Shown: one piece after another, positions 17,349 to 43,443 of the stretch | Layout: each line of letters opens with the position of its first letter | Position numbering within the stretch: the first letter of the stretch is position 1 | Virus record (IMG/VR): IMGVR_UViG_2563366806_000004 | Location: 1-44,644 of that record | From: a virus | Taxonomy: Duplodnaviria > Heunggongvirae > Uroviricota > Caudoviricetes | DNA: 44,644 nucleotides | Direction: 5' to 3' (one strand) | The notes under the pieces: model-generated | What the model saw: the letters and a program-made list of their open reading frames with translations, nothing else | Told to the model about the DNA's origin: nothing | The model's database searches: none | Translations under genes and position numbers: made by a program

Positions 17349-17524
17349 TTGACCAAAATCGAAGTTACGAACAAGGAAGTGTCGAGCGAGCTTTAACGTG
17401 CGCTAACTGCGGTCAGAAGCTGCATGTGCTGGAAGTTCACGTGTGTGAGCGTTGTATATATGAATGCTTAAATATGGTGGAACATAATGAGAAATATAAG
17501 CAACATAGACGAATTAAGAAATAA
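17345..17524 (+). pseudogene. ninF: ninF, 5' fragment interrupted by an HNH-gene insertion
   Basis: GTG-start ORF encodes ...ESVERALTCANCGQKLHVLEVHVCE as in lambda NinF, then diverges into AT-rich inserted sequence and stops at 17522..17524. Confidence 0.65.
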
Positions 17525-17993
17525 ATTATCATATGATGATGTTTTAGGTGTACTTAGATGGAAAGTGTCTCCTTCTAATAATGTTAAGGTTGGCAGTGTT
17601 GCTGGTTACATTAGGAGTGATGGTTATAGGATGTTAACTATCGATGGTGTAATTACTTATGCTCACCACGTTATATGGATGATAAATAATGGTGAGATTC
17701 CATTAGGGTATAAAATTGATCATATAAATGGAGTAAGGTCAGATAATAGGCTATCTAATCTTCGATTGGTTACACACCAACAGAATGCACAGAACCAAAA
17801 GAGAAAAATAACAAATTCGTCAGGAGTGACTGGAGTATATTTCAATAAAGAGAGATGTAAGTGGATTGCGAATATATGCGTAGATGGGCGCACCAAATAT
17901 CTTGGAATATTTGCTAGCATCATTGACGCTATTACAGAAAGGAAGAGGGCAGAAAAAGAACTGGGTTTTCATGAAAACCATGGTAGACCATAA
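17487..17993 (+). CDS. HNH homing-endonuclease-like protein inserted in ninF
   Basis: 168-aa ORF; AT-rich; RBS GGTGGA; resembles free-standing HNH homing endonucleases; lambda-like ninF sequence is found on both sides. Confidence 0.65.
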   Translation: MRNISNIDELRNKLSYDDVLGVLRWKVSPSNNVKVGSVAGYIRSDGYRMLTIDGVITYAHHVIWMINNGEIPLGYKIDHINGVRSDNRLSNLRLVTHQQNAQNQKRKITNSSGVTGVYFNKERCKWIANICVDGRTKYLGIFASIIDAITERKRAEKELGFHENHGRP

Positions 17994-18054
17994 CTGCGCA
18001 GAACTGATGAGCGATCCGAATAGCTCAATGTACGAGGAAGAAGACGATGAGTGA
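17980..18054 (+). pseudogene. ninF: ninF, 3' remnant
   Basis: Encodes (MVDHN)CAELMSDPNSSMYEEEDDE matching the lambda NinF C-terminus; out of frame with the 5' fragment. Confidence 0.6.
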
Positions 18055-18556
18055 TGTTAAAGAAAAAGATATCCCCGGCTTTGAGGGTATATATAAAGTA
18101 ACTGAAAATGGAGACATCATTTCATGCCGTAAATCAAAAAAATTATCTCATGGCATTAAACCAGGAGGATATGCATTTGTCGGTCTGTATCCAGGTGGCG
18201 GGAAAAGACCATCATATAAAATGGTTCACAGAATTGTTGCAGAAGTATTTATTGATAACCCAGATGGCAAACCGGAAGTTAATCACAAGGATGGAAATAA
18301 ACTTAATAATAAAGTTGAAAATCTTGAGTGGGTAACGCGAACAGAAAATGCGAAACATGGATTTGATTCCGGATTGCTTGTTCATGGGTTTAATCATCAC
18401 TTCTGCAAACTAACGCCAGAACAAGTGAAATCAATATATAAATCAAAAGGCAAATACAGAGATATAGCCAAAGAATTTGGTGTTTGTGCGCAGACAGTGT
18501 GCAACATAAAAAACAAATCAGCGTACCGACGTTTTTTGGAGGGGATTGATGTTTAG
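18047..18556 (+). CDS. Second HNH homing-endonuclease-like protein
   Basis: 169-aa ORF; GFEGIYKVTENGDIIS N-terminal motif and HKDGNKLNNKVENLEWVTRTEN HNH core; AT-rich. Confidence 0.65.
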   Translation: MSDVKEKDIPGFEGIYKVTENGDIISCRKSKKLSHGIKPGGYAFVGLYPGGGKRPSYKMVHRIVAEVFIDNPDGKPEVNHKDGNKLNNKVENLEWVTRTENAKHGFDSGLLVHGFNHHFCKLTPEQVKSIYKSKGKYRDIAKEFGVCAQTVCNIKNKSAYRRFLEGIDV

Positions 18557-19368: not shown

Positions 19369-19988
19369 GACTCGAAAGCGTAGCTAAATTTCATTCGCCA
19401 AAAAGCCCGATGATGAGCGACTCACCACGGGCCACGGCTTCTGACTCTCTTTCCGGTACTGATGTGATGGCTGCTATGGGGATGGCGCAATCACAAGCCG
19501 GATTCGGTATGGCTGCATTCTGCGGTAAGCACGAACTCAGCCAGAACGACAAACAAAAGGCTATCAACTATCTGATGCAATTTGCACACAAGGTATCGGG
19601 GAAATACCGTGGTGTGGCAAAGCTCGAAGGAAATACTAAGGCAAAGGTACTGCAAGTGCTCGCAACATTCGCTTATGCGGATTATTGCCGTAGTGCCGCG
19701 ACGCCGGGGGCAAGATGCAGAGATTGCCACGGTACAGGCCGTGCGGTTGATATATCAAAAACAGAGCTGTGGGGGAGAGTTGTTGAGAAAGAATGCGGAA
19801 GATGCAAAGGTGTCGGCTATTCAAGAATGCCAGCAAGCGCCGCATATCGCGCTGTGACGATGCTAATACCCAACCTTACCCAACCAACCTGGTCACGCAC
19901 TGTTAAGCCGCTGTATGACGCTCTGGTGGTGCAATGCCACAAGGAAGAGTCAATCGCAGACAACATTTTGAATGCGGTCACACGTTAG
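19365..19988 (+). CDS. Q: Late-gene antiterminator Q (lambda type)
   Basis: 207-aa ORF MRLESVAKFHSPKSPMMSDSPRATASDSLSG..., recognised as essentially lambda Q. Confidence 0.9.
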   Translation: MRLESVAKFHSPKSPMMSDSPRATASDSLSGTDVMAAMGMAQSQAGFGMAAFCGKHELSQNDKQKAINYLMQFAHKVSGKYRGVAKLEGNTKAKVLQVLATFAYADYCRSAATPGARCRDCHGTGRAVDISKTELWGRVVEKECGRCKGVGYSRMPASAAYRAVTMLIPNLTQPTWSRTVKPLYDALVVQCHKEESIADNILNAVTR

Positions 19989-20030
19989 CAGCATGATTGC
20001 CACGGATGGCAACATATTAACGGCATGATA

Positions 20031-20059
20031 TTGACTTATTGAATAAAATTGGGTAAATT
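20031..20059 (+). promoter_or_regulatory. Late promoter pR' with Q-utilisation region
   Basis: TTGACTTATTGAATAAAATTGGGTAAATT matches lambda pR' (-35 TTGACT 20031..20036, -10 TAAATT 20054..20059). Confidence 0.8.
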
Positions 20060-20092
20060 TGACTCAACGATGGGTTAATGCCTTCGTTTCAA

Positions 20093-20120
20093 GCCCCGCG
20101 GATAACACCGTGGGGCTTTT
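20093..20120 (+). terminator. Intrinsic terminator ~30-55 nt downstream of pR' (tR'-like)
   Basis: 9-bp stem GCCCCGCGG/CCGTGGGGC (one G-U pair), loop ATAACA, followed by TTTT. Confidence 0.6.
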
Positions 20121-20163
20121 GCGTTTCTGGAGGTAACGGCGAGGCGCTACCCTCGCCTTAACA

Positions 20164-20580
20164 TTAAGGGAGGGTTTTCATTACGCTATCAATCTCCCTT
20201 CCTTCAAATCTTGAAGTCCAGCCGCAGGAGCCGCAATGGTAAGGAAAGTCATCGAACCCGCTACCGACCTGTTTAAGACAGTTGGGGCAATAAACCGCGC
20301 TGATATACCCACCCGCGGGATTTTTTCTAAAGGCCGCACCCATGTGCTCGACAAACTCATCCTTTGCCCGATAAGCCGCTATTTCCTTCTCAAGTTCTAC
20401 GTTCTTGGCTTTCGCCTCGGCAAGTTCTGCTATGGTGGCAGCATGGGCTTTTTGAAGTACGTCGATCTGCTCTCCAATGAAAGCGATGCGCTCGCGCAGG
20501 ACCTCGTTACTTTGCACAGCAGAAAGCGCGCCGATCCCGTTTTTAAGGGACGCGATAAGTAATCCTACATCCATGGTCAT
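20164..20580 (-). CDS. Hypothetical coiled-coil protein with C-terminal CxxC...CxxC zinc-ribbon motif (antisense accessory gene between pR' and S)
   Basis: 138-aa ORF; start overlaps the stop of an upstream small ORF (ATGA); N-terminal heptad-like helix; C-terminal CPNCLKQVGSGFDDFPYHCGSCGW. Confidence 0.55.
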   Translation of the reverse strand: MTMDVGLLIASLKNGIGALSAVQSNEVLRERIAFIGEQIDVLQKAHAATIAELAEAKAKNVELEKEIAAYRAKDEFVEHMGAAFRKNPAGGYISAVYCPNCLKQVGSGFDDFPYHCGSCGWTSRFEGREIDSVMKTLP

Positions 20581-20714
20581 TCCCTAATTGTCTGTGGAAT
20601 GACCAATTTAGCAATTTCCTTTGTCTGTGGAAAGCAGGGAAACCACGCGCCGGGCGTGGATAAATATCCCGGTATTGAATCGACTGTTGGCTGCCGCTTG
20701 GCGGCCTTTTTCAT
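20577..20714 (-). CDS. Small basic hypothetical protein (translationally coupled to the 138-aa gene; start uncertain)
   Basis: 45 aa from ATG 20714 (MKKAAKRQPTVDSIPGYLSTPGAWFPCFPQTKEIAKLVIPQTIRE); the longer track ORF runs antisense into the holin gene. Confidence 0.35.
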   Translation of the reverse strand: MKKAAKRQPTVDSIPGYLSTPGAWFPCFPQTKEIAKLVIPQTIRE

Positions 20715-20829
20715 TTCAGGCTCACGGGAATCATCCGCTACGTGCTTTGTTGATAAATCCAGCCCGTGAAGCCTGACCCTTTTCAAACACACACACACAG
20801 CGCCATCCGAAAAATCGGAGGTGAGGCCT

Positions 20830-21153
20830 ATGAAAATGCCATACAAACAAGATTTCATCGCTGCGCTACTTGCCGCCAAGGAGCAGGGTATTGGTGCAAT
20901 GCTGGCTTTTATCATGGCGTATCTGCGTGGTCGCTATAACGGCGGCGCGGTAACAAAAACGCTAATTGATGCGCTGATGTGCGCGATGATTGCCTGGTTC
21001 GTTCGTGACCTTCTGGACTTTATCGGCCTGAGCAGCAACCTCGCCTACATAGCCAGCGTCTTTATTGGATACATCGGCACCGATTCGATCGGCAATCTTA
21101 TTAAAAAACTTGCAGCAAAAAAGGCGGGAGTTGACGATGCAAACCAGTCCTGA
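20830..21153 (+). CDS. S: Holin S (lambda class I, dual-start MKM motif)
   Basis: 107 aa from ATG 20830; [27 protein letters not shown]... resembles lambda S. Confidence 0.9.
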
Positions 21154-22050: not shown

Positions 22051-22083
22051 TTTTTTTGCAAATCACAAAGTCAATTTAATGAG

Positions 22084-22106
22084 CCTCGCGATGCGGGGCT
22101 TTTTTT
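22084..22106 (+). terminator. Putative intrinsic terminator after the lysis cassette
   Basis: Hairpin CCTCGC-gat-GCGGGG followed by CTTTTTTT. Confidence 0.45.
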
Positions 22107-22255
22107 ACATCTGAATTTCACAGCGCATCTCACGCGCATATTACATCACCCGAGCCTTTCAGAAAGTTGAGCCTGAGAACTGCCGTATATGGTGGCGACC
22201 ATCTCGGGGCGGCTTTTCTGTGAGACAGGCTCACTTTCTAAAAGGTAAAGACGCT

Positions 22256-22774
22256 ATGAATAATCCGTCAGTTATTCCGGCCTTCGACTTCCGCGAAATG
22301 GTCACGACCCTCGACAACAAGATAATCACCACATCACTCAAGGTGGCGGATTACTTTGGCAAGCGACACAAAGACGTTTTGCGTGCCATACGTAACCTGA
22401 AATGCTCCGATGACTTCACCCAGCGCAATTTTGCGCCCATTGATTTCATTGATAAAAATGGCGATGTTCAGCCTATGTATAACATCACCCGCGACGGATG
22501 CATGATGCTAGTGATGGGATTCACTGGCAAAACAGCTGCCGCAGTGAAGGAGTGTTACATCAATGCCTTCAACTGGATGGCCGAGCAGCTAAACCGGCGC
22601 ATGGCGATGGGTGAAGAATTGCAGCATCGCTACGCCATCAAAGAAACGCGCTCAAAGCTGAAAGGCACGATCGGAAGCCGTTTGATGAACGAGCGGAAGA
22701 AAGAGAAGCGCGTCCTGGAGCTCGAACATGAGCACATCATGCAGGTAACGCAGCCGGAATTACTTATTGGCTGA
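22256..22774 (+). CDS. Rha-family phage regulatory protein
   Basis: 172 aa from ATG 22256; ITTSLKVADYFGKRHKDVLRAIRNL resembles the Rha family N-terminus. Confidence 0.65.
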   Translation: MNNPSVIPAFDFREMVTTLDNKIITTSLKVADYFGKRHKDVLRAIRNLKCSDDFTQRNFAPIDFIDKNGDVQPMYNITRDGCMMLVMGFTGKTAAAVKECYINAFNWMAEQLNRRMAMGEELQHRYAIKETRSKLKGTIGSRLMNERKKEKRVLELEHEHIMQVTQPELLIG

Positions 22775-42766: not shown

Positions 42767-43443
42767 GCAAATACACCGAACTGATCACTAACTACCACGC
42801 TACCAAGCCACTCTTTTTTGACCATATAGATCTGAGCACCCGCCCGCTGATTGATGTGTCCAGCACTATGTCAGGGCTTATAACAGCCTTCGATATCGAT
42901 ACTGCTGTCGGTGTACAGCTCGACATCCTCGGTCTGTGGATCGGACGCAGTCGCATAGTCAGCCAGCCAATTAGCGGAGTTTATTTCAGCTGGGACACTG
43001 ACGGGCTTGGGTATGACCAGGGCATCTGGCAAGGGCCATATGATCCTGATTCTGGCTATACGACGCTAAGCGATGAGACGTACCGCATCATTCTGAAAGC
43101 GAAAATCGCTATCAACAACTGGGACGGTCGGAACGACTCTCTGCCTCCCATCCTTGACGCTGCTACCGCAGGCTCAGGCCTGAGGATGCAGATCGTCGAC
43201 AACCAGGACATGACGATTTCGGTCTGGGTTTTCCCTGAAACTGATATTTCTGATGTGTCTCTCGAACTGATCGCCGCTATCAAACATGGCTATCTCACCG
43301 TTAAATCAGCTGGCGTATGGGCCGGTGATGTTGAAACGCCTTCGGTAGAAACACCGTCAGAAGGCTCTAAATTCTTTGGGTTTGATATGGATAACGAATA
43401 CATCGGCGGGTTCGATGTTGGAGCATGGGGGACAATACTCTAA
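42763..43443 (+). CDS. Putative baseplate/tail protein
   Basis: 226-aa ORF, ATGA overlap, immediately upstream of the tail fibre gene. Confidence 0.4.
   Translation: MSKYTELITNYHATKPLFFDHIDLSTRPLIDVSSTMSGLITAFDIDTAVGVQLDILGLWIGRSRIVSQPISGVYFSWDTDGLGYDQGIWQGPYDPDSGYTTLSDETYRIILKAKIAINNWDGRNDSLPPILDAATAGSGLRMQIVDNQDMTISVWVFPETDISDVSLELIAAIKHGYLTVKSAGVWAGDVETPSVETPSEGSKFFGFDMDNEYIGGFDVGAWGTIL

Follow-up and report, generated by a model that had tools for sequence, protein, structure and literature searches.

A probable short-leader form of the lambda-type Q-dependent late-gene switch at a mosaic junction in a lambdoid prophage

Short terminated RNAs made from late promoters are known from lambda (the 6S RNA), 21, phi80, 82 and P22, and tandem terminators 3' of lambda pR' were reportedly described by Luk and Szybalski in 1983. 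In the late switch of lambda a promoter is constitutively active, an intrinsic terminator stops transcription early, and polymerase loaded with Q reads through to S-R-Rz (PMC9388147), and both the steps of Q action and the roles played at lambda PR' by the -35-like TTGACT and by AACGAT have been described (PMC9388147, PMC9191641). For the stable scrunched paused complex the consensus T+14 N+15 Y+16 G+17 has been given (PMC9191641). In Stx phages, the constitutive and prematurely terminated late-promoter transcript of lysogens, which ends at tR', gives rise to StxS, an Hfq-bound RNA with known targets that is cut by RNase E from a 258-nt precursor to 74 nt (PMC7547250).

Here we describe the corresponding region of a 44,644-nt stretch of viral DNA (IMGVR_UViG_2563366806_000004, positions 1-44,644; this whole stretch is referred to as the window). 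We consider it very probable that this region serves a lambdoid prophage as its Q-dependent late-gene switch, with a short leader; the element is real, and represents a common and little-discussed version of an ordinary lambda-like late on/off switch (Q gene, always-on promoter and early terminator), built on the same logic as that of lambda itself. Its components are listed in Table 1. The protein predicted to be encoded immediately 5' of the promoter belongs to the lambda Q family (206 of its 207 residues are identical to lambda Q in the protein alignment), and the window is identical to lambda base-for-base over 19989-20079 (end of Q, -35 and -10 of pR', qut/QBE and the transcript to +14), the identity being unbroken from the Q stop codon to the end of GGGTTAAT at 20079. 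The match of pR' and of the Q-utilisation region to lambda, which had been noticed in a preliminary description of this DNA, is thereby borne out. The putative Q-binding element (QBE) lies between the -35 and -10 hexamers, and hence within a predicted sigma-70 promoter, and the same qut string is annotated in the GenBank records of mEp235 and HK544. The transcription start (+1) was set at A20066 by homology with the start of the lambda 6S RNA (lambda 44587-44780), and in this register a -10-like hexamer at +1..+6 adjoins the -35-like TTGACT, as would be expected of a sigma-dependent pause element.

Table 1. Predicted features of the late-switch region (window coordinates) and contents of the variable slot in the window and its relatives.
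Feature	Coordinates	Strand	Basis or remarks
Q antiterminator gene, lambda type, 207 aa	19365..19988	+	Pfam PF03589, E = 1e-57
Late promoter pR'	20031..20059	+	promoter scan; identical to lambda
-35 TTGACT	20031-20036	+	promoter scan
Q-binding/qut TATTGAATAAAATTGGGTAAA, 21 nt	20037-20057	+	0 mismatches vs lambda
-10 TAAATT	20054-20059	+	promoter scan; 17-bp spacer to -35
-35-like TTGACT	20059-20064	+	identical to lambda
Sigma-dependent pause element AACGAT, +1..+6	20066-20071	+	identical to lambda
23-nt initial transcribed region AACGATGGGTTAATGCCTTCGTT, HK225 type	20066..20088	+	sequence, folds
Pause-site context T+14 G+15 C+16 C+17	20079..20082	+	sequence
First terminator tR'1	20091..20126	+	terminator scan, folds, conservation, compensatory changes, HK225 annotation
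Hairpin GGCGAGG/CCTCGCC, without U-tract, just past antisense stop	20138..20157	-	minus-strand fold
Antisense ORF, 138 aa	20164..20580	-	PHROG 1244 (unknown function), E = 6e-26
Second terminator tR'2: GGCUGCCGC-UUG-GCGGCC then UUUUUCAUUU (= GGCTGCCGCTTGGCGGCC + TTTTTCATTT)	20689..20716	+	terminator scan; hairpin -12.8 kcal/mol
Conserved pre-S leader ATTTCAGGCTCACGGGAATCATCC...	20713..20829	+	common to prophages without the cassette; fold
Holin S, lambda family, dual start Met-Lys-Met	20830..21153	+	Pfam PF05106, E = 8.5e-30
Slot content: nothing, tandem terminators			ET846
Slot content: ~300 bp non-coding DNA			H5
Slot content: 189-aa ORF		sense	W619, LR-33
Slot content: antisense ORF		antisense	window, Louie, HK225, ET245

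Relatives recovered by megablast against phage records were of three kinds. Phage HK225 (JQ086371) resembles the window at 98.2% DNA identity from +1 through tR'1, the antisense ORF, tR'2 and the pre-S leader; its antisense ORF (HK225_067) is 100% identical to that of the window at the protein level, and the same hairpin is already annotated in its record as a 'rho-independent terminator' (42934-42960). Unlike the window, HK225 encodes a 271-aa Q (same Pfam family, ~50% identical to lambda Q over the N-terminal 125 aa) and its promoter/QBE reads TTTACT-TTTCCCGAATCTGTGT-TAATTT, yet its transcript starts with AACGATGGGTTAATGCCTTCGTT, identical to the window. The HK97 type (HK97, HK544, HK140, mEp235, mEpX1, N7, Gally and others, found also in many Salmonella and Klebsiella phages) shares with the window a lambda-type Q and pR' and a homologous terminator, AAAGCCCUGAG-UUAAUAG-CUCGGGGCUUUUUGCGUUUU (AAAGCCCTGAGTTAATAGCTCGGGGCTTTTTGCGTTTT), placed at the same distance and nearly identical in 3' arm and U-tract, but differs in its inner stem and loop, in its initial transcribed region (AACGATGGATAAATGCACTCGTT), in the one additional base between -10 and +1 and in having, without any antisense cassette, a lambda-like non-coding leader up to S. 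Phage Louie, a plaque-forming isolate from sewage, is 99.7% identical to the window over 19950-20850. Two adjacent ORFs of ~168 aa each, located in the nin region (window 17487-18556, 5' of rusA and Q), have counterparts in Louie that carry an HNH endonuclease annotation.

From these comparisons the window emerges as lambda Q and its promoter joined, from +15 on, to a transcribed region, a terminator and an antisense cassette of the HK225 type, the predicted crossover being situated inside the shared AACGATGGGTTAAT. Since the viable phage Louie has the region at such high identity, the hybrid arrangement works; this particular combination is rare, its parts being common, because the full hybrid was detected in only 1 of 5,426 complete E. 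coli genomes (94.8% identity). The reciprocal hybrid was also observed: in L331 (IMG/VR UViG_2690316028_000001), 3' of its Q, an HK225-type promoter/QBE is joined at AACGATGGGTTAAT to the lambda transcribed region and long leader.

The context of the pause site differs from that of lambda. At +14..+17 lambda reads TTCG, a perfect T-N-Y-G, whereas the window (T-G-C-C) has C in place of G+17 and departs from the strict lambda PR' pause site; G+17 is likewise missing from HK97-type leaders (T-G-C-A). We regard the T-N-Y-G consensus as a modulating feature of the cassette and not as a defining one, and consider that with the loss of G+17 both pausing and Q loading may differ quantitatively from lambda. 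A TTCG motif is present instead at +18..+21 of the window. The preliminary description had placed the divergence from lambda right after GGGTTAAT; the break is not abrupt there, as +1..+23 still matches lambda at 20 of 23 positions (with differences at +15, +17 and +18) and all similarity ends only past TCGTT (+23, 20088).

A strong hairpin followed by a U-tract had been reported at 20093..20120, and these coordinates proved correct: the stem delimited by the terminator scanner (20091-20101 / 20108-20118) comprises 11 pairs, 8 of them G-C by scanner count, around a 6-nt loop (ATAACA), and is followed by the tail UUUUGCGUUU, within TTTTGCGTTT, with T-runs at 20117-20120 and 20124-20126. Folded as a hairpin only, tR'1 of the window reaches -21.1 kcal/mol, as compared to -26.3 for lambda tR' and -18.6 for the HK97 equivalent. 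The +1..+61 RNA as a whole folds into a 5' hairpin and the terminator hairpin (-29.2 kcal/mol, z = -4.3), with none of 200 shuffles being as stable. With the 3' end taken to lie 3-9 nt past the G-C stem, RNA ends are predicted at ~20119-20125, which corresponds to a leader of ~54-60 nt from 20066 versus 194 nt in lambda; the terminator ends at ~+53, and the earlier expectation of a terminated transcript much shorter than the 6S RNA agrees with this at the sequence level. The window differs further from lambda by the antisense gene and the second terminator that lie between tR' and S. The alignments and pair counts show the traits of the short-leader tR' (a hairpin running from +26..+30 to +52..+56, a U-tract, and a 3' arm GGGGCUUUU(U)GCGUUU), while the homology to lambda +24..+194, up to lambda tR', that would identify a lambda 6S RNA is lacking, no similarity being found past +23; no Rfam family matched anywhere in the window at gathering thresholds. 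A putative intrinsic terminator thereby lies 3' of the pause site and 5' of the late genes. The U-tract of tR'1 is interrupted (UUUUGCGUUU), its termination efficiency being uncertain, and, with a second terminator present, the first may leak.

To what extent such a leader is peculiar to the window can be judged from its distribution. Among 122 loci with a lambda-type -10/pause motif, 72 had the short terminator and 49 the lambda 194-nt leader. Loci were also selected by the Q protein alone, a choice that is unbiased as to leader: 80 IMG/VR loci with lambda Q (at least 99% identity) included 38 with the HK97-type short terminator and 33 with the lambda 194-nt leader, and in 80 loci with HK225-type Q (76-100% identical) AACGATGG was found at +1 in 78 and a terminator at +26..+56 in ~70. 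The position of the hairpin was kept in all 69 distinct short-leader variants, and hundreds of related phage contigs have a U-tract hairpin, homologous or analogous, equally far from +1, on account of which the tR'1 hairpin cannot be attributed to chance. Over 36 variants 98.7% of the terminator helix was paired, and in 3 of its pairs both bases had changed; its covariation score was reached by none of 500 shuffles, and registers slid along the alignment were 38-59% paired. In the L289 subgroup, in which the transcribed region is different, an unrelated hairpin (AAAAAACCCGC..GCGGGUUUUUU; AAAAAACCCGCCACCGAGCGGGUUUUUU) occupies the position of tR'1. That the position is conserved although the sequence has been replaced strongly supports a function of the hairpin in terminating pR' transcription, and the short leader appears to be a widespread standard form (of HK97 and HK225 types). 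The preliminary description missed this wide distribution, together with the homology reaching +23 and the second plus-strand terminator past the cassette.

The same observations bear on the idea that the promoter is a dead relic of recombination, with a chance or unrelated hairpin behind it and late genes that are driven otherwise. The locus is indeed a mosaic junction at which G+17 of the pause consensus was lost; however, its Q ORF is intact (206/207), its promoter and qut are perfect, viable Louie carries the region nearly unchanged, the +15..+23 sequence of the window serves ~50 HK225-type loci, and the hairpin is conserved with compensatory changes. A dead relic is in our opinion scarcely credible, and we retain the interpretation of a working switch with tR'1 as its first terminator.

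Upstream of tR'1, folding predicts a 5'-terminal RNA hairpin in which AACGA (+1..+5) pairs with UCGUU (+19..+23) (-7.4 kcal/mol). By scanning, the 23-mer of the window was recovered from 68 IMG/VR contigs and from only 4 loci in the scanned species-representative genomes, and it occurs behind at least 4 unrelated promoter/QBE types, the lambda or HK97 type preceding it in only five loci. The TCGTT that forms its end is kept in ~138 of 151 unbiased loci (~90%), which makes it as conserved as the pause element, whereas +9..+18 vary; the motif was noted likewise in lambda (L005, 788-810) and HK97 (L004, 1618-1640). In the L289 type, with its unrelated transcribed region, the 5' end is again paired (+2..+26). 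The 5' hairpin does not lend itself to validation by covariation, as the pause element dictates the sequence of its 5' arm, and the only changes seen in it were uncompensated breaks in 2 of 36 aligned variants. The conservation of TCGTT may reflect an RNA feature (stability, pause escape) or one acting at the DNA level.

The DNA that follows tR'1 is variable. Complete E. coli genomes match the tR'1-containing leader (20065-20120) and the pre-S region (20689-20827) separately, with differing intervening DNA, and among relatives the slot between tR'1 and tR'2 measures 32-1035 nt and has at least 8 different contents (examples in Table 1). Its 3' end is always formed by a hairpin and a T-run, followed by the conserved ATTTCAGGC(T/C)CACGGGAATCATCC, with at least 9 different hairpins found at this place. 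The two predicted terminators appear to form a frame round the variable slot, which tR'2 would close ahead of holin S. In the window the slot holds the antisense cassette that had been noted just downstream of the hairpin, and the ORF is real. The polymorphism of the slot among related genomes amounts to the presence or absence of a gene at a fixed site, as in a moron (accessory gene), and it is like a moron that the antisense gene appears to behave.

A hairpin bordering a convergent gene might be thought to belong to that gene, and we asked whether the structure at 20091-20118 could mainly be a terminator or 3' stabiliser of the antisense gene, acting bidirectionally and acquired with the cassette, and not the terminator of pR'. 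The antisense ORF stops at 20164 without a canonical terminator, the hairpin at 20138-20157 (which travels with the cassette in HK225 and E. coli ET245, and is possibly the 3'-end structure of the antisense mRNA) lacks a U-tract, and a minus-strand A-run (AAAAG) precedes the tR'1 stem. Moreover, in ET245, behind an unrelated PF06323 Q, the cassette is accompanied by the 3' arm and U-tract of the tR'1 hairpin. Against this, the tR'1 stem is not followed by a U-run on the minus strand either (fold and sequence), giving way there to UUGAAACG, with only two U; the hairpin lies equally far from +1 whether the slot is empty, non-coding or filled by a sense-strand gene, and it is present in ~70 of the 80 HK225-type loci, whatever comes next. 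As the same hairpin is kept 3' of pR' in prophages without the antisense gene (ET846, H5, W619 and LR-33), we assign it to pR' rather than to the cassette. We consider the alternative very improbable, a role as antisense terminator being at most secondary, and hold to tR'1 as the terminator of pR'. The ET245 locus itself (L130, 1166-1232) has a Q of another family and its own promoter, and its terminator, after which the same cassette follows, has nothing but its 3' arm and U-tract in common with the window, for which reason a recombination breakpoint can be placed within the terminator stem.

The antisense ORF found no match in Pfam, NCBIfam, PADLOC or PDB sequences. In a single-sequence AF2 model (pLDDT 76) the protein consists of one long helix and a small C-terminal domain, the latter bearing two CxxC pairs. 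Phages of Cronobacter, Providencia and Pasteurella carry homologues (41-80% identity) at other genome positions, always opposed to their neighbours. The promoter scan found no minus-strand promoter for the gene; the best manual sigma-70-like candidate on that strand (TTGCTA-16-GACAAT, 8/12 consensus) is weak, and the mRNA starting from it would be nearly leaderless. Just 5' of the antisense start, TTGTCTGTGGAA is present as a direct repeat (20588-20599 and 20621-20632, 33 bp apart), a candidate operator or promoter-associated repeat. The 75-aa ORF that was called in Louie (CDS0060; window 20577-20804, minus strand) is probably spurious, as it overlaps tR'2 and the pre-S DNA of cassette-less prophages, and it is unrelated to the Arc-like ribbon-helix-helix gene that precedes the 138-aa homologue in Cronobacter phage ES2. 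A comparable arrangement is seen in DLP12 of E. coli K-12, where nmpC, too, is an antisense accessory gene located between Q and holin and opposed to the late operon; unlike the window, DLP12 has an unrelated Q family, promoter and cargo (a porin versus a 138-aa protein) and no homologous leader, and it was ruled out as an experimentally mapped homologue, its Q and leader being unrelated.

Past tR'2, the conserved pre-S leader is predicted to fold into a long hairpin, followed by a (CA)6 run and by a small hairpin that covers the ribosome-binding site of S. The long hairpin pairs CAGGCUCACGGG (20717-28) with CCCGUGAAGCCUG (20763-75) and is followed by ACCC and by UUUU (20780-83); it is common to prophages with differing slots. 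A third structure of terminator type, or else an element of mRNA structure, may be present here. The (CA)6 run (20788-20799) falls in the 5' untranslated region of S, is shorter in E. coli H5 (L126), and may be a slippage-prone tract. Holin S is the predicted first late gene served by the switch, and S, lysozyme, Rz and terminase, all encoded on the plus strand, lie downstream. The terminase genes are preceded, 3' of Rz, by a further plus-strand terminator (22081-22101) and by an inserted 184-aa ORF (22220-22774), the Louie counterpart of which is annotated as 'anti-CRISPR protein'.

From the identity with lambda and the conservation described above we infer a constitutive pR' and Q-dependent read-through of tR'1. 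In the lysogen, as the lambda identity suggests, host sigma-70 polymerase would start constitutively at pR', AACGAT would capture sigma, and the polymerase would scrunch and pause near +16. Without Q, transcription would terminate at tR'1 with the release of the ~54-60-nt RNA carrying its two hairpins, and any read-through past tR'1 would meet tR'2 as a back-stop; tR'1 might in addition shield the antisense gene from convergent pR' transcription. Upon induction, the lambda-type Q would bind the QBE and load onto the paused polymerase, and Q together with NusA would form a nozzle on the RNA exit channel, so that the polymerase would ignore both hairpins and pass through the antisense gene and on to S, R and Rz. 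A literature search that covered HK97 late-terminator and RNA-seq work as well as AACGATGGGTTAAT found no published RNA data or mapping for any short-leader phage. The study of NusA and nascent RNA length (PMC4914094) was set aside as not applicable, as it deals with the RNA length at which Q engages and not with the distance between promoter and terminator.

A further question is whether the short RNA has a function of its own, either as an Hfq-type trans-acting sRNA like StxS or as a cis-antisense partner of the convergent mRNA 3' end. Like StxS, the proposed RNA would be a constitutive, prematurely terminated late-promoter transcript of lysogens that ends at tR', and the authors of the StxS study considered that this behaviour may be general (PMC7547250); unlike StxS, with its defined processing, Hfq binding and targets, it is an RNA predicted from sequence. 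It ends in a Rho-independent terminator and U-tail (the usual Hfq module), its +1..+23 is strongly conserved across promoter types, and an antisense mRNA that remained unterminated before 20126 would be perfectly complementary to it. On the other hand, the RNA is almost fully structured in the fold (two hairpins with a 2-nt joint and no obvious single-stranded seed), its longest complementarity to other plus-strand sequence of the window is 10 nt, i.e. at chance level, and DNA-level constraints of pausing and Q loading explain the conservation of +1..+23 at least in part. A regulatory RNA of this kind seems to us quite unlikely, and can in any case coexist with the late-switch explanation, which we continue to favour. 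Loci with at least 4 different Q-binding sites retain the AACGA-UCGUU pairing, and an unrelated transcribed region has such a pairing anew. More broadly, it is unlikely as well that the ~54-60-nt pR' RNA of short-leader prophages has been selected for a function rather than being just a by-product; if it were the case, the 5' hairpin could guard both the late mRNA and the short RNA against 5'-end-dependent decay, or could help the polymerase to escape from the pause or the RNA to be threaded into the Q nozzle, and the short RNA could behave as StxS does or base-pair with the mRNA of a convergent accessory gene at the 3' end of that mRNA.

Taken together, the window represents a rare hybrid of the textbook Q antitermination cassette, both halves of which are already present in public phage annotations. 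Leaders occur naturally in several forms; the 6S leader of 194 nt is just one of them, and that of ~57 nt is at least as common, a point to be borne in mind when pR'/tR' are annotated in prophages or when prophage genes are judged to be silent in lysogens. Natural hybrids (the window, without G+17, and the reciprocal L331) provide material for testing how far Q loading depends on sequence past +14. Furthermore, the two-terminator slot offers a clean example of where accessory genes enter the late operon without switching the operon on.
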